Part shown: positions 3,020 through 56,382 of the stretch, piece after piece
Numbering within the stretch: position 1 is the stretch's first letter
Layout: each line of letters starts with the position of its first letter
Assembly (NCBI GenBank): GCA_964016885.1
Contig: OZ024760.1
Location: forward strand, 23,746,001-23,810,000
Source of the DNA: Eledone cirrhosa
Lineage: Eukaryota
DNA: 64,000 nt
Reading direction: 5' to 3'
Notes under the pieces: model-generated
What the model was told of the DNA's origin: nothing
Seen by the model: only the letters and a program-made list of their open reading frames with translations
Database searches by the model: none
Position numbers and translations under genes: made by a program

Positions 3020-3199
3020 AATTGTTTCTACTTGTTGGCACAAGGCCAGCAATTACCCAGTACATTACTGGTACTTTATTTTATCGACCCCGTAAGAATG
3101 TAAGGCAAAGTCAACTTCAGCGGGATTTGAACTCAGATCGTAAAGGGTCGTAACTATGCTGGAAAGCATGGCAGCCGACTCTCTACGGATACTGACAAT
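3020..3199 (-). mobile_element. tRNA-derived SINE (dominant family of this window)
   Basis: Minus strand shows an A-box-like head, B-box GAGTTCAAATCCC, central TTTGCCTT..CATTCTTACGGGGTCGATAAAATAAAGTACCAG and an (ATT)-like tail. Many other copies occur in the window. Confidence 0.85.
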
Positions 3200-4297: not shown

Positions 4298-4728
4298 GCT
4301 TTAATTCATTATAAACTCCCAGTCGGTGACATTAATAACCGGATGGTTATTTAACTGTTGATTGCCAAAGCCCTATCGTCACGCATACTGTTACCTCCTC
4401 CGCGACCAGCTTTGTTGTTATGTAGTGTTTCACTTATGTCCTCTCCTAAATTATCTAGATCATGAAAGAGATTATAAGAAATTGATATGAAAATCAGCAG
4501 GTGCATATGTTTTTACTTGTAGCATGATCCTCCCAAAATATGACATTAGTAGAATCGGCAACGGGTGGCAACGACGCATAAAATGGAAACTGAAAAGCAG
4601 GTGGGAGATTCTGTATAAGTATGTATATGTATTTATATATATGTATATATATATACATATACATATATACATATATATATATACATATATATATATACAT
4701 ATATATATATACTTATATATACATATAC

Positions 4729-4779
<51 letters not shown>

Positions 4780-4781
<2 letters not shown>

Positions 4782-4891
4782 AACCAGTAAGACCCCGACA
4801 GCTGAGCTCAAGCCGTTTCGACGGCTAATTCTGGACTAAATGAAAATGTATCCTGGTATTTAAATAGCCGATCTTCTCAAGGGGTAATTCC
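4780..4891 (-). ncRNA. Full-length type I hammerhead, U3-A8 core variant (family A, inverted arm)
   Basis: Reverse complement of 5036-5147. Confidence 0.75.
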
Positions 4892-5035
4892 ATATATGGT
4901 CAAAGTGATTTTCAAAAATCAGTAGTAATTCTGTGGTTGCAAATTAGTAGGGGAGATGGTTTAGCCACCATCTCCCCTACTTATTTGCAACCACAGAATT
5001 ACTACTGATTTTTGAAAATCACTTTGACCATATAT

Positions 5036-5147
5036 GGAATTACCCCTTGAGAAGATCGGCTATTTAAATACCAGGATACATTTTCATTTAGTCCAGAATT
5101 AGCCGTCGAAACGGCTTGAGCTCAGCTGTCGGGGTCTTACTGGTTCC
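5036..5147 (+). ncRNA. Full-length type I hammerhead, U3-A8 core variant (family A)
   Basis: GGAATT-ACCCC-TTGAGAA(5047-5053)-GA-T-CGGCTA..TAGCCG-TC-GAAA(5108-5111)-CGGCT-TGAGCTC-AGCTG-TC^(5130)-GGGGT-CTTACTG-GTTCC. All three stems close and the site is GUC. Confidence 0.78.
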
Positions 5148-5230
5148 TATTACCCACTCTACTACCTCAAGTATTGAGTACTTTGGTGCGTTATGGTCCA
5201 CCTGGTTCCTTACCACATTTCCTTCGTTAC

Positions 5231-5267
<37 letters not shown>

Positions 5268-5462
5268 AGTATATATATATGTATATATATATAAGTATAT
5301 ATATATATGTATATATATATAAGTATATATATATGTATATATATATAAGTATATATATATGTATATATGTATAAGTATATATATATGTATATATATATGT
5401 ATATATATATATATATGTATAAATATGTATATATATGTGCATATATATATGTATATATATGC

Positions 5463-7023: not shown

Positions 7024-7490
<467 letters not shown>

Positions 7491-7639: not shown

Positions 7640-7642
<3 letters not shown>

Positions 7643-8005
7643 ATCAAAAGATGGTTTAAAGAGTTCCAAGTATTTTATTATGCGCCTTTCAAAACAAATA
7701 TCATCATGAGATTATATCTGCGTTTTCATTAGGTAAAAGAGGGATACATGATATGAGGGTTAAAAAAGACTTGTGAATAGTGAAGTTTTAAATCAACATA
7801 TTTTATCGACATATTTTATCTGATGAAAACGCAGATATCATCTCATGATGATATTTGTTTTTGAAATGCGCATAATAAAATACTTGGAACTCTTTTAACC
7901 ATCTTTTGATATTATATTATTCATACTCCAGTCCTACAAACTGTAGAGTGTTACTTATCCGATATTTGCATTGCTTTATTGTGCTACAATAAAACTCACC
8001 TCCTA
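7640..8005 (+). mobile_element. Family C fold-back element with tail
   Basis: 7640-7738 is an inverted copy of ~7812-7910. The tail ..CCAGTCCTACAAACTGTAGAGTG..AAAACTCACCTCCTA is shared with the 14213 copy. Confidence 0.8.
7812..7882 (+). ncRNA. Minimal type I hammerhead (family C)
   Basis: TATTTTAT-CTGATGA-AAA-C-GCAGATATCATC-TCAT-GATGATATTTGT-T-TTT-GAAA-TGCGCA-TA^ATAAAATA. Stem I is a perfect 8 bp, stem II is long, and stem III is the palindrome ATGCGCAT. Confidence 0.88.
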
Positions 8006-8227: not shown

Positions 8228-9100
8228 TTTCTGTATTAGCCACAAGGGCACAAAAGAAGGGGACAAATACAAATGGGGAGTTTACATACAGGTATATGAA
8301 AATAAAACTATTAATAAAATAACAAATAACAATTGAATTCCCCAATAGGGGGAGGCGTTACACAGGGATTGTACACAACCCAAAAAGAAGTACAACCCTC
8401 ATCTCCAGAAGCACCAAGAGTGAGTACTCCCTTCCTCTCTTCCTCTTTTTTCCTCAACCTACAGGCTTATATAGAGAGAAGGCCCAACCACTCGGGCCAT
8501 CTCTGCCACATTCACCCACCTTTTATAAAACTTGCTGGGGTAAAGCACTTCTCTCTCCACCCTGATTCTTCTTCCAAAATGATATTTGAAAAAACGAATC
8601 AGTTGCTCTCCGGAGAGAAAGGTGTCTGACCTCAACCCTTTTAACCTCGTCCATCATATAACCTCTTTCACCATAGCCAACACATAGGAAAACCGCCTCT
8701 CCCTCGTTTTTGAAGGAGGGTGGCGGTTTGATCATGACAATGGACTCGGTGGTCAACTGAATTGGTCCCACCCAGGACAATAGTCGTTCTACATAGCCCC
8801 AGAGGTCGGTAACGCCTGGGCAGTGTACAAATGCGTGTGCGACGGTTTCCTCGTCGCGCACGCATCTCGGACAGATCTTTTTCGAAGAGTCCCTACCCGG
8901 GCGCCCATGTCTGTAGAGTTTGTCTCGAACTGGTAGAGCTCCTCGGTAGCACTGCCAGGCCAAGGATTTTGGTAGTTGTCCATTGGTCCCGGGCGGAAGG
9001 TCCTACCGAACAGACTGGCCAGTTCGTCCTCCTCTACGCCTAGAGTTTCTCCGAGCGTGTCGTCGCACTTGGTGCGGACCAACCCTCTATAGAGCGTCGA
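8228..9100 (-). mobile_element. 3' fragment of a Tx1/L1-type LINE (ORF2 C-terminal zf-RVT-like zinc finger)
   Basis: ORF 8523-8963: WQCYRGALPVRDKL..CPRC..EETVAHAFVHCP..LW (CxxC-x8-H-x4-C). Flanked on both sides by (GATA)n. Confidence 0.8.
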
Positions 9101-9793: not shown

Positions 9794-9856
<63 letters not shown>

Positions 9857-9858
<2 letters not shown>

Positions 9859-10002
9859 AACGAGTAGGACCCCGACGGCTGAGCTCAAGCCGTTTCGACG
9901 GCTAATTCTGGACTACTCGTCCCTATTACCCACTCTACTAACCTAAGAATTGAGCACTTTGGTGCGTTATGGTCCACCTGGTTCCTTACCACATTTCCTT
10001 CG

Positions 10003-10004
<2 letters not shown>
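9857..10004 (+). mobile_element. Family A short copy (inverted partial HHR arm plus tail)
   Basis: Same left boundary (TA)n-GGAAC and right boundary CCTTCGTTA-(TA)n as 4777-5229. Confidence 0.8.
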
Positions 10005-10070
<66 letters not shown>

Positions 10071-11068: not shown

Positions 11069-11178
11069 TGGGGGTGTAATCTATATGTATATCTATATAT
11101 ATTGCTTACTAGCCGACTATATATATTTAAATACTAATTATACATTTATATATCAAATATATATATATATATATATAT

Positions 11179-11288
11179 GTAACAAAGGAATTGTGGTAAG
11201 GAACCAGATGGACCATTACGCACCAGAGTACTCAATACTTAGGGTAGTAGAGTGGCAAATAGGAAAAAGTAAGACCCCAACGTCAGAG

Positions 11289-11291
<3 letters not shown>
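11179..11291 (-). mobile_element. Family A tail fragment
   Basis: TAACAAAGGAATTGTGGTAAGGAACCAG..GTACTCAATACTTAGGGTAGTAGAGTGG. Confidence 0.75.
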
Positions 11292-12483: not shown

Positions 12484-12518
12484 CACACATATACATATAT
12501 ATATATATATATATATAC

Positions 12519-12850
12519 GATAAATTAACAAATGGAAAGTATATTTATAAAACCATAAAGCTCCCGGATAGACTATCCGGGAGCTTCCAACAGAAATGGT
12601 CGCATTCTTTAAGGGTATGTCAATATTTATTTATAAAACAGCTCTATATCATATTTTATCTGATGAAAGCACGCCATAATTTAACTTGGTGTCCTTGAAA
12701 TATGTATACTGAAATAATTTTGGTTTTATAAATATAGTTTCCATTTGTTAATATATCGTATTTTTACTCCAATTATTTGTTGAGTGCTATATATCAGTTA
12801 TAAAAATATTTGCTTTGCTTGGTGTATCCCAACAATTTAAATAGAACTTC

Positions 12851-14080: not shown

Positions 14081-14600
<520 letters not shown>

Positions 14601-14773: not shown

Positions 14774-14873
14774 TATATGTGTGTTTGTGTGTGTGTGTGT
14801 GTGTGTTTGTGTTTATGTATATATATACATATATATCGTGACAGGAAATATGGTGGGTGATTTCAGATATATA

Positions 14874-15064
14874 ATTGTTTCTACTTTTGGCACAAGGCCA
14901 GCAATTATCCCAGCATATTACTGGTACTTTATTTTATCGACCCCGTAAGGATGAATGGCAAAGTGAACCTCGGGCGGTATTCGAACTCAGACCATAAAGG
15001 GCCGTAACTCTTTGCTGCAAAGCATGGCGCCCTACCCTCTACCGATACTGCCAATTCACCGCCC
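14874..15064 (-). mobile_element. tRNA-derived SINE
   Basis: Full copy; minus strand GGGCGGTGAATTGGCAGTATCGGTAGAGGG..GAGTTCGAATACC. Confidence 0.85.
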
Positions 15065-18693: not shown

Positions 18694-18774
18694 AAAGGTA
18701 AATAGAAATAACACAATAGGTACAGTATATGGAAGGAATATATTAGGTTAACGCTTGAAATAGTAGGAAGAGGG

Positions 18775-18810
18775 TCTTAACGTTTCGAACGCTAGTCCTT
18801 CATCAGAAGA
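18775..18810 (-). ncRNA. Minimal PLE-type hammerhead
   Basis: TCTT-CTGATGA-A-GGA-CTAGCG-TTC-GAAA-CG-TT^AAGA. Stem I is 4 bp and stem III is the palindrome ACGT. Lies in an ~210 bp island (18690-18910) between microsatellites. Confidence 0.75.
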
Positions 18811-18908
18811 AAGAATGAGAAATAAGATAGAATGAAGGGACGGGCGGGGTGGAATTTGAAAAAATCTCTTTAGATAAAATAACAGGTCCATTCCTGTTGA
18901 CATCTCTT

Positions 18909-23080: not shown

Positions 23081-23162
<82 letters not shown>

Positions 23163-23165
<3 letters not shown>

Positions 23166-23480
23166 CGAAGGAAATGTGGTAAGGAACCAGGTAGACCATA
23201 ACGCACCAAAGTACTCAATACTTAGGGTAGTAGAGTGGGTAATAGGAACGAGTAGGACCCCGACGGCTGAGCTCAAGCCGTTTCGACGGCAAATTCTGGA
23301 CTAAATGAAAATGTTTATCCTGGTATATGAATAGCCGAGCTTCTCAGGTGGTATTTCCATATATGGTAAAAGTGATTCTCACAAGGATTGGTCAAAAGTT
23401 TGTTGTTGAGACACATAATTCTATCATGGCAATTTGTAGAGGGAAGGGGTAGCTGAACTCTTTCTTCTACTGGCAGGTTA
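23163..23480 (-). mobile_element. Family A copy; HHR at 23245-23358 (minus) with core CTGAGAA (C3/A8 mismatch)
   Basis: Colinear with 4981-5229; stem III CGGCT-TGAGCTC-AGCCG-TC-GGGGT is intact. Confidence 0.8.
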
Positions 23481-23481
23481 T

Positions 23482-23858
23482 TGGAGTAAAAATACGATAT
23501 ATTAACAAATAGAAACTATATTTATAAAACCATATTCATTTCATTATACATATTTCAAAGACACCAAGTTAAATTATGGTGTGCTTTCATCAGATAAAAT
23601 ATAATATAGAGCAGTTTTATAAATAAATATTGACATACCCTTAAAGAATGCGACGGTTTCTGTTGGAAACCTATCCAAGAGCTTCCAACAGAAACGGTCG
23701 CATTCTTTAAGGGTATGTCAATATTTATTTATAAAACTGCTCTGTATTATATGTTATCTGATGAAAGCACACCATAATTTAACTTGGTGTCCTTGAAATA
23801 TGTATAATGAAATAAATATGGTTTTATAAATATAGTTTCCATTTGTTAATATATCGTA
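23482..23858. mobile_element. Family B fold-back with two hammerheads (23537-23601 minus; 23750-23814 plus)
   Basis: Arms ~23492-23668 and 23683-23858. Confidence 0.85.
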
Positions 23859-24254
23859 TATATACATATATGTATGTGTGTGTGTATATATATATATATA
23901 TATACTGTATATATAAACACCTACGTATCTACCAACCTATGTAGCTCCCTATCTACTATTCTATATATCTATCAACATACCTATATATCTATATATCTGT
24001 CAATCTACTGTCTAGATTAGTCACCACTCTACGCTCCTCTACTCTCTACATTACTCTTGACAGATTGACAACGATTTAATTAATTGAGATCAAAGCTAGA
24101 CGCAGGCACGTGACTAGCATACTGAGACTTTCACTGTTATTTTTGTTTTGATTTTGTCGTTTTGCTTTTTTTGTTTTTGTTTTTTGTTTTTTTCTGTGTG
24201 AAGTGCTTGTTGGCAATACCTGGTTGTTAGTTCAGAGAGGGTCAGGAGTAAGTA

Positions 24255-30102: not shown

Positions 30103-30291
<189 letters not shown>

Positions 30292-30901
30292 AGAGAGAGA
30301 GAGTGCGTGTATGAAAGAGAGAGAGACCGAGAGAGAGAGAAAGCGAAAGAGAGAAATGACTTCAACAGGGCTTAAAAGGTTTCATTCATACGTAACAAAT
30401 ATTTCTAGCCCTATGGACGCCATTTCTCTATTTATCAAAGATATACACACTTTATCAACTTATTGATTACATATGTTAACACTGGTTACGGACTGTCACA
30501 ATTGGGGAGACTAGTCTACATATTATATATAGGTGCAGAAACAATAATGTTATTACAAACAAGGTTTTTTAAGTGAAAAGAAAAAAGAAAACGGATAAAA
30601 AACTTACATAGTGTAGAGCATAAAAAGTCAATGTCGAAGGAAAAATAATGTTATTTACAAGCATAATTATTGAAGTTAAGCAGATTAAAATGTGTTAATA
30701 TAGCAAGAGTTCTTAGTTGATCCATGATTCCATGATGAAGACAAATGGTCGACTGAGGTTTGATATGATTTCCCTTTTTAGAGAGTTAATATGCAGGGGG
30801 AAGCATTTCTTGCTGGATGATATTTAATTTATTTAAGAAAAATGATTAGATAGGGTGTGAGGGAAGTAACTCTTGTAAATGTTTGATTGTTTGTTGCAGT
30901 T

Positions 30902-31330
30902 TTAGATTGGTCCGAATTTTAGAGCATTATGTAGAGGTTTGAATTTGTTAATGAAATATGTTTCCTTATTAGTACGTTGGATGAAAGTAGCGTTGTCTAT
31001 GAATTTGTAAATGGGGAAAAATTTAAAGTTTGGATGTTGGTTGTGAACACAATTGGCGATATGTTCACTAAATGCAATCTTTCTGTATTCCTGTATTTTA
31101 ATTTGTGATTTATGGACGGTCATAGGTTGACGGAGGCTGTTTTTTCTCTGTCCTGTGTAGTGCTCTTGACAACCTGAGCAGGTCAAAATATAGATTAGGT
31201 TTTAAGATGCACATGTAAAGTTGTGTTTAACTGTGAAACGCTGTCCTTGTTTAAAATAGAATGTTGAACCTTCTATTAGAGTTATGCATATCCCACTGTT
31301 GGGCCTTCCGCATTTTGTTACTGTAGGGTT
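30902..31330 (-). pseudogene. PLE C-terminal GIY-YIG endonuclease with Cys-rich linker (disrupted)
   Basis: TKCGRPNSGICITLIEGSTFYFKQGQRFTVKHNFTCAS*NLIYILTCSGCQEHYTGQ..LRQPMTVHKSQI..SEHIANC..KETYFINKFKP; contains an in-frame TAA. Confidence 0.85.
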
Positions 31331-31929
31331 CATTGTGAGGGTTTGTTGGAATTTGGCTTGTGTGAGGATGTTTTTTTATGGATTTAGGTTGTCTTTTGTT
31401 CTTTATGATGTGTGTTTGGAGGATTTTGTTCATTCTTGGGTCTCTTTTTAGTAAAGGAATGTTCTGGAGGATGGTGTCGAATGCCAGGGAAATCATATCA
31501 AACATCAGTCCACCATTTGCCTCCATCATGGAATCATGGATCAACTAAGCACTCTTGCTATATTAACACATTTTGATCTGCTTAACTTCAATAACCACGC
31601 CTGTAAATAACATTATTTTTTCTTCCACATTGACATTTCATGCTCTACATTATGCACGTTTTTTTCTTTTTTCTTTTTTCTTTTTTCTTTTTTCTTTTTT
31701 CTTTTTTCTTTTAGCTTTTTTCTTTTTTCTTTTTTCTTTTTTCTTTTTTCTTTTTTCTTTTTTCTTTTTTCTTTTTTCTTTTTTCTTTTTTCTTTTTTCT
31801 TTTTTCTTTTTTCTTTTTTCTTTGTTCTTTTTACTTTTTTCTTTTCACTTCATAAACCTTGTTTGTAAATAACATTATTGTTTCTTCACCTTCTGTTTAA
31901 CATGTGCGACACCACACTGATACATTTTA

Positions 31930-31971
31930 CTATCATTTGATAATGCATAAAAATGCTGAAACCGGTAATAG
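31930..31971 (+). ncRNA. Minimal hammerhead-like motif with U3-A8 core
   Basis: CTATCAT-TTGATAA-T-GCAT-AAAA-ATGC-T-GAAA-CCGG-TA^ATAG. Stem III is the palindrome ACCGGT; stem I is weak. Confidence 0.6.
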
Positions 31972-32161
31972 ACAATTATTAAATATATAAATAGATAAAT
32001 AAATGCTTGTTAAATAATAAATAAATCAACTAATACCCTAACACTTCACACAAAGTAAAGCATTTCGTTTTAATCATTTTCTAATCCAGAAAAAAGAGAG
32101 AGAGAAACAAAAAAGGAAAACAAAATATTTTTCTTCCTAATAATCGTCTCTTTCTCCCTGT

Positions 32162-32226
<65 letters not shown>

Positions 32227-33348: not shown

Positions 33349-33705
33349 GAGAGAGAGATAGAGAGGGGGAGAGTGAGAGAGACAGAGAGAGAGAATGTGT
33401 GTGTGTGATTGAGTGGGAAGGAGACCGAAAAGAACACTTTGAGAGAGAACAAACAATTGAGGCCTACATGTTTATCTATATTCACAAGCATATCCAGAAT
33501 TCAAGTTGTCCTTCGATTATAATATTTTGACAGAATCAATTAACTAACTATTGAATGTATATCGAAAATTTTGCTGCGATTAACATGCTTCCTCAATAAT
33601 ATTATCATTTATCCTATATGTTAATATACATATAAATAGAGGAATGTGGGAAGTATAACAATCAAAGAGGCTAATATCACCAAGAAGAAGAAACCACAAA
33701 TAAAT

Positions 33706-33885
33706 AATTGTTTCTACTTTTGGCACAAGGCCAGCAATTACCCAGTGTATTACTGGTACTTTATTTTATCGACCCCATAAGGATGAAAGGCAAAGTTAAC
33801 CTCGGCGGGATTTGAACTCAGAATGGCAAGGGCCGTAACTCTATGCGTCAAAGCATGGCGTCCGACCCTCTACCGATACTGCCAA
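33706..33885 (-). mobile_element. tRNA-derived SINE
   Basis: Full copy with A/B boxes on the minus strand. Confidence 0.85.
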
Positions 33886-34369
33886 TACCACGAAGCAGTG
33901 TGACAACTATAACGGCTCTATTCACGCGTATGTTAAGCACTTAGACCAGATAAGGAAGAACGCACGGTGCGTTCGTATTGTTTAAAACAGTTTTCGCTTT
34001 ACCGTTTGAAAAGGGGCTTTAACCCTGAAATATCATGTCGAAATATACTGAATAAAAAACATTTCTTCGTTTTGTATCATTTGTCATAGATTGTTCTGTG
34101 TATTCTTGTAACAAATTGTACCGGCTTTCTGAAAATTATCAGTTATCTATTATAGATATAATTCGTTTATTTCTTTTATCGTATCAAACATTGCTAACAC
34201 ATGAAATTATTTGTCACGATATATGTAATTTCAGCTGGGATAAAAGTCACTAAATTTGCATTCAACTCTTCAGGTCTAAAATATGTTTACACCAATCTGT
34301 ATCGTGTTTCTATATAGTGACACAAAACATCATCCGCTCACACATGCAAGCTTATATATATATATATAT

Positions 34370-39060: not shown

Positions 39061-40260
39061 TTAGATGCAACATTTTTGGAATGGTTTACATATTTTTACT
39101 GTTCCATTAATGGATTGTACTTGTAATTTCCTAACTAGTTGTGTTCTTTCTGTTCCTGTGAAGCCTAGCTTCTCAAGATTTGTATTGAGGCAGTTACTAA
39201 CATACCCCAGTACCCCAATAATCACAGGCATAAATCTGAAGGTGTAATCAGGGTGGAGTATCTGCAGATTTCTCAGCAGTTCTGCATAAATATTCTCCTT
39301 TTCACTAATCTTTGATATTATATTGACATCTGCTGGGCAGCTAACTTCCACTACTGTGCATGCCTTCTTTTCCCTGTCCCATATCATAATATCTGATCTG
39401 TTATGCCTGCATTTTATGGGGGGTTTTACTGGAACATTCCACCAGTACCCTTTCATATTATGTATATGTATGTCTCCTGCATTGCTGTAGCTTTTAGTGT
39501 GTTTATTATCGGAGCTATCTTTTCTACTCATTGCATTGTACAGTGTTTTGGCCACTACATCATGCCTCATAGGTAGATAGTACCGCGATGACATCTTTGG
39601 GCAGCTGCTGATGACATGGGTGATATCCTCGATGTTAGTTCTGCAGAGTCTGCACTTGTTATCACATCTAGGTGTTTTGCCTGCATCCCTATCTCTTTTG
39701 TGAATCAGGTATTTCGTGTTGATTTCCTGTTCTTGGATTGCAAAAGCGTATCCTTCAAAGTGGGAGCCAATATAGCGGTTTTTGGTCCAAGATAGACTAC
39801 TTTCTTTATCTATATTACTATTTTTGCTATATTGCTATTTTGCTATATTACTATTTTTGATGATAAGCATGCAATTTTTCATCCATGGATTCACTGCGAT
39901 ACTGCTGAGCGACTTCCATGGGTGTGAGTTTTTGATTATCACATAGAGAATACCTCTCGAGGAGTTCCTTCCCAACTCTCATGATATTATCTGTTCCATG
40001 GAGATAGACTTGTTCAGGAGACGGGCTCCTACGCTTTGAAAGTTCGTAGATGTTGTCGGATGGATATGATGCGACATTCAAATGTCTGGACTGTTGTTAG
40101 GTCTCTGCCTCCCTGCTTACGTTTCAAGTAAAGGCAGTCTATGTCTCTGTTGATGTGGAAGTTTCCGGTGTTGTTTATGGTTTTTCAAGTTCTAACATCA
40201 ATTTCTCGGATTTCGTCTATCATCCAATTGAGTATTCCAAAGTTGGTGTTAGGAGAGGCA
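39061..40260 (-). mobile_element. R4-clade LINE 3' part (thumb, CCHC zinc knuckle, restriction-like endonuclease), decayed
   Basis: FEGYAFAIQEQEI..CRLCRTNIEDITHVISSC..RHDVVA..WWNVPV..NRSDIMIWD..VVEVSCP..EKENIYAEL..PVIIGVLG. Confidence 0.9.
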
Positions 40261-55808: not shown

Positions 55809-55930
55809 TATATATATAGTTTGAATTATTTTCTCACATCTTACGTTAACTATTTTTCCATTTTGACGTTATAGTCACTTATATATTATGAAATACTGTT
55901 GGCTTCACGCTCACAATAATTTCTACTTTC

Positions 55931-55969: not shown

Positions 55970-56382
55970 ATTAAATAAATGGAAACTATATTTATAAAAC
56001 CATATTTATTTCATTATATATATGTCGGGGATATCATATTAACAATATGCTATGCCTTCCTCAGACAAAATACAATATAAACAGTTTTATAGATAAATAG
56101 ATTCGACATACCGTAATAAACACCGACTTGCATTTGTGTTTATTACGGTATGTCGAATCTATTTATCTATAAAACTGTTTATATTGTATTTTGTCTGAGG
56201 AAGGCATAGCATATTGTTAATATGATATCCCCGAAATATATATAATGAAATAAATATGGTTTTATAAATATAGTTTCCATTTATTTAATATTGTAAATAT
56301 ACTCCAAATATTTGTCGAGTGCTTTTATATCAGTTATAAATATTTACTAGTTGTAACCCAACAATTTTAAATATAACTTTAC
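55966..56382 (+). mobile_element. Family B fold-back with tail; HHR at 56187-56252 (+) and a mutated copy at 56007-56072 (minus)
   Basis: Arms ~55966-56123 and ~56136-56293. TATTTTGT-CTGAGGA-AGG-C-ATA-G-CATATT-GTT-AATATG-A-TAT-C-CCC-GAAA-TATATA-TA^ATGAAATA. Confidence 0.85.

Follow-up and report, generated by a model that had tools for sequence, protein, structure and literature searches.

The window analysed here, a stretch of 64,000 nucleotides of Eledone cirrhosa (animal) DNA of which 42% is tandem or simple repeat, contains at 5036-5147 of its forward strand all the parts of a type I hammerhead ribozyme, as judged by reading the sequence and by folding. This hammerhead has a U3-A8 core and lies in the 3' end of an abundant repeat, family A, that is likely a Penelope-like element (PLE) pseudo-LTR; as a monomer or a dimer, and probably at a modest rate, it would cleave the RNA of the element after C5130. 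This reading is given a probability of about 0.68.

In this example, copy A, three helices surround the core and helix I is open. The inner part of helix I pairs 5042-5046 with 5131-5135 and, beyond a variable internal loop, 5036-5040 pairs with 5143-5147. The first half of the core, U3 U4 G5 A6 G7 A8 A9 (UUGAGAA; TTGAGAA in the DNA), occupies 5047-5053 and is followed by a 54-nt stem-loop II (5054-5107), formed by G5054-C5107, A5055-U5106, one bulged U and the pairing of CGGCUA with UAGCCG (5057-5062/5100-5105). The segment at 5108-5130 comprises the GAAA box (5108-5111), helix III (5111-5116/5124-5129; six pairs, one of them G-U), its 7-nt loop with the self-complementary word GAGCUC (5118-5123), and the NUH site GUC (GTC in the DNA, 5128-5130), with the predicted cleavage point after C5130. 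The hammerhead anatomy of the original prediction, with a TTGAGAA core mirrored in an inverted arm, is thereby confirmed by sequence, by the minimum free energy (MFE) fold and by the 183-bp arm, as are the 6-bp hairpin of stem III and the GUC site. Its stem II of about 55 nt corresponds to the 54-nt stem-loop, but only 8 bp of this are true helix, the rest being a 37-nt loop with a weak inner hairpin. No conserved pairing for a tertiary contact between loop II and helix I was seen, and the internal loop of helix I is variable (5137, 5142 and 5143). Two candidate contacts were set aside, namely six base pairs between loop II and the tail of the element, a match of which a rough count expects about 0.6 by chance, and a pairing of loop II with 5140-5144, which is not conserved.

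The MFE structure was the hammerhead fold in four sequence contexts of 112 to 265 nt, with an unremarkable folding energy (z 0.03; 95 of 200 shuffles fold as well). A descriptor specifying a Y3/R8 core, GAAA, UH and helices I, II and III of at least 5, 8 and 6 pairs matched 1 of 1000 sequences when the 36.8 kb of the window outside simple repeats were dinucleotide-shuffled, and looser thresholds matched 3 and 6 of 100. Rfam gave no match at gathering score across the window, and none of the 43 matches up to E 10 in 4700-5300 belonged to hammerhead families; these were microRNA-type models fitting the long palindrome, all below gathering score. Such a miss is expected from the variant core and the long loop II, and a CUGANGA descriptor likewise misses the hammerhead of copy A, as had been foreseen for CUGANGA-based searches.

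Helix I of copy A forms with a probability of 0.95-0.98 and helices II and III with about 0.66, helix III rising to 0.88 when 5127 carries the majority base. The probability of the whole hammerhead fold is 0.42 in copy A, about 0 in copy B and 0.001 in copy C (B and C being the other core-bearing loci, described below); B and C are predicted to misfold, C by slipping in helix II, and a competing hairpin across GAAA takes from 0.33 (A) to 0.95 (B) of the ensemble. By this modelling copy A would fold as a monomer with a probability of about 0.4-0.66, and higher with the majority base at 5127. The GAGCUC word is kept in all six arms covering loop III (such a word has a chance of about 3%), and helix III with its loop makes a long palindrome, which in the majority form has 18 nt and one additional base. 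A duplex of two such palindromes is predicted at -26 to -31 kcal/mol against -10 to -14 kcal/mol for two hairpins, a gain of 14-17 before concentration effects, and the metazoan PLE hammerheads described in the available parts of PMC4209133 and PMC6765202 are palindromic at helix III and cleave slowly, as dimers. Because loop III is a kept palindrome, dimer action would be at least as likely as monomer action, and monomer competence is possible. Of the monomer-competent ribozyme first proposed, the predicted fold of the copy A lineage stands; the palindromic loop III, the poor folding of copies B and C and sequestration by the inverted arm weigh against it. RNA spanning both arms is modelled as a hairpin of -359 kcal/mol in which every hammerhead pair has a probability of 0, and this insertion is probably dead, its read-through RNA being expected to form a 183-bp hairpin that sequesters the ribozyme.

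BLAST of the window identified seven family A loci with ten arms, the weakest at 44723 (E 0.007), in agreement with the at least six copies or fragments originally counted. The locus of copy A is inverted. Its minus-strand arm (4777-4959) is 5'-truncated, has a short 3' end equivalent to 5150 and carries a second hammerhead copy, A', with U3 at 4880 and the predicted cut site after 4797; its last three bases merge into an (AT)n run. The 8-nt spacer between the arms (4960-4967) is likely part of the direct arm because, by eye, it resembles the sequence upstream of copy B. The direct arm (4968-5232, plus strand) starts at a 5'-truncated element end and reaches the long 3' end, followed by (AT)n, and it alone has a tail of about 80 nt (5151-5232, plus strand), a Penelope-type 'tail' between two alternative 3' ends. 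The arms differ at one of 183 positions (4777-4959 versus 4968-5150), and both outer ends adjoin (AT)n.

Two further core-bearing loci, both with the long end, are copy B (23160-23480, minus strand) and the diverged copy C (45233-45483, plus strand), and the first half of the core is present in four of the ten arms, at three loci (A, its mirror A', B and C). The locus at 9854-10008 lies in (AT)n and consists of an inverted short-end arm (equivalent to 5089-5150) and a direct long-end arm (equivalent to 5138-5232), without the first half of the core. The remaining loci are a short 3' fragment with the long end, in (AT)n (11177-11291, minus strand), a 35-nt tail fragment that ends in (AT)n, the weak match noted above (44723-44757, plus strand), and an aged copy made of an inverted short-end arm and a direct tail fragment (55688-55811). 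Two arms in the window stop, by 5' truncation, at 5089 and 5091.

The core reads U3 G7 A8 in A and A', C3 G7 A8 in B (CTGAGAA, 23347-23341) and U3 A7 A8 in C (TTGAAAA, 45295-45301), the last two exactly as described before for the copies at 23245 and 45295. All four keep U4 G5 A6 A9, G12 A13 A14, A15.1-U16.1 and C17, whereas position 7 and the loops vary. In the window alignment 91% of cells are paired, against 23-50% when the partners are slid; the stem covariation suggested as a check is no higher than in shuffles in this alignment (242 of 500 as high), whose three independent core copies are too few for it.

The stretch or part of it is present in 16 public runs from 11 studies, six of which carry at least half of its words. 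Four of the 24 runs listed, X22 (22,672 reads), X1 (16,167 contigs), X4 (44 contigs) and X6 (4 contigs), were aligned at 80% likeness with a 2% reporting threshold, and the runs with small word shares (X12-X21) did not enter the comparison. The four differ from the window at 5016 and 5079 and may therefore come from relatives and not from the same species. The depth of X22 is biased because this library is of the reduced-representation kind, cut at AATT, and its read ends at 5038, 5086 and 5097 are AATT library sites rather than biological ends. Position 3 is C in 24 of 303 reads of X22, in 24% of the depth of X1, in 39% of that of X4 and in 0 of 6.9 in X6. At position 7, whose alleles across the family are G, U and A, X22 shows U in 39 of 307 reads and X1 in 11% of its depth. 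In X1, X4 and X6 the whole stretch is free of A>G changes at 2% or more; three such places occur in X22, and G8 at 2% or more is possible in that run. The frequent changes shown lie in loops or preserve pairing (5127 U>C at 72-82%; 5137, 5142 and 5143 in or beside the internal loop of helix I). Since U3 is the majority base, A>G is absent from X1, X4 and X6 at this threshold and position 7 is free, U3-A8 is a lineage state of family A and not decay. This upholds the claim that U3 and A8 are kept around a free position 7, and the competing C3-G8 family consensus, under which the variant would be decay, was not found in the four runs. The 3-8 'covariation' originally described is real relative to the canonical consensus; inside the family there is none, because A8 is invariant and only position 3 varies.

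The C3/A8 state, originally noted in the 23245 copy, is by the runs not that of one decayed copy. One X4 contig has C3.A8 together with all the diagnostic changes of copy B at a depth of 22.1, and the A-type contig has 26.1. From depth ratios X4 looks like a thin sample of the X1 repeat profile, so the C3.A8 mismatch type is likely a multi-copy lineage. Core depth is only 2-9% of the depth of the 3' half, presumably through 5' truncation or unaligned loop II variants, and the family consensus therefore rests on the alignable minority of copies. A loose-end consensus before 5144 (agreement 0.5-0.6) was read as alignment clipping of known lineages and not as a new family.

A multi-copy lineage with a mismatched 3-8 pair, nearly as deep in X4 as the A type, is what would be expected if the structure were hammerhead-derived, catalytically dead or near-dead, and retained because it marks a binding or initiation site for the element protein. 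The core is also missing from most copies, one of the 3' ends falls at the foot of helix I, the GAAA hairpin competes with the fold in copy A and dominates it in copy B, and hammerhead mutants of an anole PLE had no effect on insertion in vitro in the available part of PMC11167929. Such a landmark role is nevertheless unlikely, given that in A, A', B and C variation affects position 7 and the loops but spares the other core positions, and that the majority 3-8 pair is Watson-Crick.

The carrier, which the original prediction did not name, is by its anatomy very likely a PLE end; family A is an abundant (AT)n-inserted repeat and likely a PLE pseudo-LTR, a membership argued from anatomy because the frames scanned include none beside its copies. 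Its 3' end is fixed at either of two places, about 5147-5150, where helix I has its foot, and about 5229-5232, and the predicted cut site is 20 and 100 nt from them. (AT)n follows 5150 in 3444 reads of X22 and 75 contigs of X1, and 5229 in 8582 reads and 262 contigs. Three of the seven loci in the window are inverted, all three combining a short-end inverted arm with a long-end direct arm, all four solo copies have the long end, and (AT)n terminates ten of ten arms; 11 opposite-strand joints from 5086-5103 occur in the public runs. The available text of PMC8557442 gives 5' truncation, an inverted truncated copy, a one-sided tail and (TA)n preference as marks of PLEs, and that of PMC11167929 derives the tail from two internal starts of reverse transcription, with both target strands cut and extended. 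Family A also has the microsatellite insertion bias of the Neptune and Naiad types, and its tail is about 80 nt long compared with the 30-40 nt usually described for PLEs. Near the two alternative 3' ends, 5140-5157 resembles 5202-5217; each end also has a few bases in common with the (AT)n target, perhaps a trace of microhomology priming.

No reverse transcriptase (RT) or GIY-YIG frame is attached to the family A copies among the 150 of 191 candidate window frames scanned, and the family has no match to the Neptune-type remnant at 30.3-32.2 kb. Pattern scans for family A gave 0 matches in viral contigs and 0 in metagenome contigs. One match in a prokaryote genome and 62 in viral contigs to a 15-mer were attributed to chance, none of the 63 loci extending past about 24 nt.

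That no coding frame adjoins any copy would also suit a non-autonomous family, retrozyme- or SINE-like, that always lacked a gene of its own and uses the protein of a Penelope element, and animal retrozymes are presented as non-autonomous PLE derivatives in the available part of bioRxiv 10.64898/2026.07.22.740005. The animal non-LTR retrozymes covered there and in the corresponding portion of PMC7229834 resemble family A in being non-coding, with type I hammerheads, and related to PLE ends; they are head-to-tail tandems with canonical hammerheads, whereas family A is dispersed, truncated or inverted. The window contains no head-to-tail tandem of family A, the 5' ends are ragged with no fixed unit length, and upstream homology fades without a sharp boundary, which makes this origin rather improbable.

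For a hammerhead carried in a PLE end, the reading preferred here, a course of events can be proposed from PLE biology. An autonomous copy elsewhere would supply the RT and GIY-YIG nuclease, and the element protein would nick (AT)n. Reverse transcription primed by both target strands at two internal RNA sites would then give the two ends and the one-sided tail, and two truncated cDNAs joined head to head would give the palindrome. The cut site lies within the genomic copies, and no copy in the window begins at 5131; the copied templates were therefore uncut there, and the ribozyme may act on a tandem precursor RNA at another step. The anole PLE with a mutated hammerhead still inserts in vitro (PMC11167929, in the portion available), and the ribozyme would likely not be needed copy by copy, which would explain the amplification of the C3.A8 lineage.

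The U3-A8 core itself has precedents. U3-A8 hammerheads are natural and active in vitro according to the available part of PMC3088659, and in the hammerheads of Cercyon PLEs from Schistosoma mansoni a dedicated descriptor gave about 1,300 U3-A8 hits (Cervera and de la Pena 2014, PMC4209133, in the part compared), with UUGAUAAA and UUGAAAAA as examples. Such cores, called an uncommon natural variant in the original prediction, have been on record for PLE hammerheads since 2014. In the same material, Cercyon hammerheads resemble family A in being type I, in a PLE end, with U3-A8, G10.1-C11.1 and a self-complementary helix III region, and in occurring mostly as solo truncated copies and sometimes as opposite-strand pairs. 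They lack helix III and have loops II of 4-9 nt and an extra base after A9, whereas in family A helix I is in two parts, loop II has 37 nt, helix III has 5-6 bp and is closed by a palindromic loop of 7 nt, and the extra base is absent. Among the aligned U3-A8 examples of PMC4209133 that were compared, no loop II comes near 37 nt and no helix III has 6 bp. By the length of its helix III, family A also departs from the minimal hammerhead of PLEs, in which this helix is absent or a short palindrome.

The hammerheads of Perreault et al. 2011 (PMC3088659) have the same compensated 3-8 pair in different carriers, and a long loop II is not described in the portion available. The PLE insertions of Craig et al. 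2021 (PMC8557442) and Frangieh et al. 2024 (PMC11167929), again as far as the available parts go, share with family A the 5' truncation, the inverted 5'-truncated copy, the tail at one end, the (TA)n preference and templates uncut at the hammerhead; they differ in their tails of 30-40 nt against about 80 nt, and family A is known here from its non-coding end alone. Fungal and protist PLE hammerheads, in the available part of PMC4209133, likewise have a large helix III and a predicted single-motif fold; their elements are telomeric and nuclease-less and their cleavage is shown, whereas family A is animal and microsatellite-inserted, keeps a palindromic loop and has its cleavage predicted only. 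Eight short family A motifs had no match in the Naiad, Chlamys and Hydra sequences of the part of the PMC8557442 file searched, where line breaks may mask single matches, and by eye the three published octopus Naiad ends compared do not resemble family A. In the part of the PMC8557442 supplement at hand, the ends of Naiad_Obim and Naiad_Ovul by eye have GAAA upstream of CUGAUGA with complementary flanks, and they might be permuted hammerheads rather than a 'half core'. Family A is not described in the literature consulted on octopus or cephalopod hammerheads and on U3-A8, including the available part of PMC6155905; Repbase, an octopus repeat library or Lunse et al. 2017, on PLE hammerhead dimers, may hold a description. 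The motif is genuine, well formed and a trait of the family, and is best described as a terminal hammerhead, probably of Penelope type, whose core swap is already known and whose arms are unusually long; the long palindromic helix III and the 37-nt loop II would be new.

The extra base that PLE hammerheads usually have after A9 (consensus CUGANGAH in the part of the PMC4209133 supplement available) suggests another register, in which position 7 is deleted, 5051 becomes position 8 and an extra base precedes helix II; B would then have C3-G8, C would have U3-A8 and A a U3.G8 wobble, making a C-G, U.G and U-A series of the window copies. This register is very unlikely, as 5051 is G, U or A, like a free position 7, its U (11-13%) is unable to pair with U3, and the majority state would be a wobble. 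Deletion of position 7 is moreover poorly tolerated in hammerheads. An assembly fold-back at 4777-5150 is the least probable explanation, for although the arms are identical at 182 of 183 positions and share bases at 5016 and 5079 that differ from nearly all run reads, they finish at different natural ends (short and long), and the same layout recurs at two other loci in the window and in the joints of the public runs.

Several other hammerheads are present in the window. A second family, with a canonical CUGA(U/C/G)GA minimal hammerhead, about 9 bp of helix II, a palindromic helix III, inverted copies and two (AT)n-flanked ends, occurs at 7142-7413, 12518-12849, 23486-23865, 44755-44892, 51745-52156, 55135-55406 and 56010-56380 (cores at 7324, 23593, 51932 and 55318 on the minus strand and at 12660, 23758 and 56195 on the plus strand). 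At 23160-23865 a chimeric insertion joins this family directly to the 5' end of copy B, both on one strand. A third family (7641-8003 and 14216-14596) has CUGAUGA, about 15 bp of helix II interrupted close to the base by an internal loop, a palindromic UGCGCA helix III and the short-end/long-end layout. Both families share the two-end layout of family A, which supports a PLE carrier. Identical tandem units about 504 bp apart (128-571, 632-1075 and 1134-1397), each with a minus-strand minimal hammerhead (327, 831 and 1333) and followed by an inverted piece, make up 128-1520, which may be retrozyme-like, a PLE partial tandem or an assembly duplication. A Neptune-type PLE remnant (30290-32165, minus strand) has a cysteine linker and GIY-YIG (30905-31351, Pfam E 1.1e-4), one stop, and an inverted arm that ends in (AT)n and contains a degenerate minimal hammerhead, UUGAUAA (U3-A8), at about 31937, which is built on the same small plan as the C3-G8 motif in the 128-1520 tandem. 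A single classic minimal hammerhead, CUGAUGAA, with a 4-bp helix II and GAAACGU, lies at 18765-18820 (minus strand).

Other repeats include a C-terminal fragment of an R4/Dong-like restriction-endonuclease retrotransposon (39064-39834, minus strand; 67 homologs, one in Octopus bimaculoides with 59% over 60%), a C-terminal L1/Tx1-like fragment (8526-9002, minus strand; zf-RVT E 1.4e-7) and an abundant SINE-like family (3023-3199, 14864-15055, 33697-33886 and others), which presumably resembles an octopus repeat. This mix of Dong/R4-, L1/Tx1-, SINE- and Penelope-like repeats fits the available part of PMC13282606 and, with the Octopus bimaculoides homolog and the SINE-like family, points to a probable octopus host.

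Family A is a high-copy animal hammerhead invisible to Rfam and to short-loop CUGANGA descriptors, and genomic ribozyme counts are therefore low. Its overall significance is modest. The comparable abundance of the U3-A8 and C3.A8 lineages provides material to test selection for cleavage, dimerisation or fold in PLEs, a setting treated in the available parts of PMC8557442 and PMC11167929, and a helix III that is palindromic although its length would let it fold by itself is convenient for the same test. More tentatively, and possible rather than probable, family A may be an animal Penelope family with a hammerhead architecture undescribed in the portions of the literature compared, combining U3-A8 and a 37-nt loop II with a long palindromic helix III able to change from monomer hairpin to dimer duplex and back, and with one RT start at the foot of helix I; a sister C3.A8 lineage would have amplified about equally. 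If this is true, the lineages with paired and broken cores would be a natural experiment on the need of Penelope elements for ribozyme cutting.
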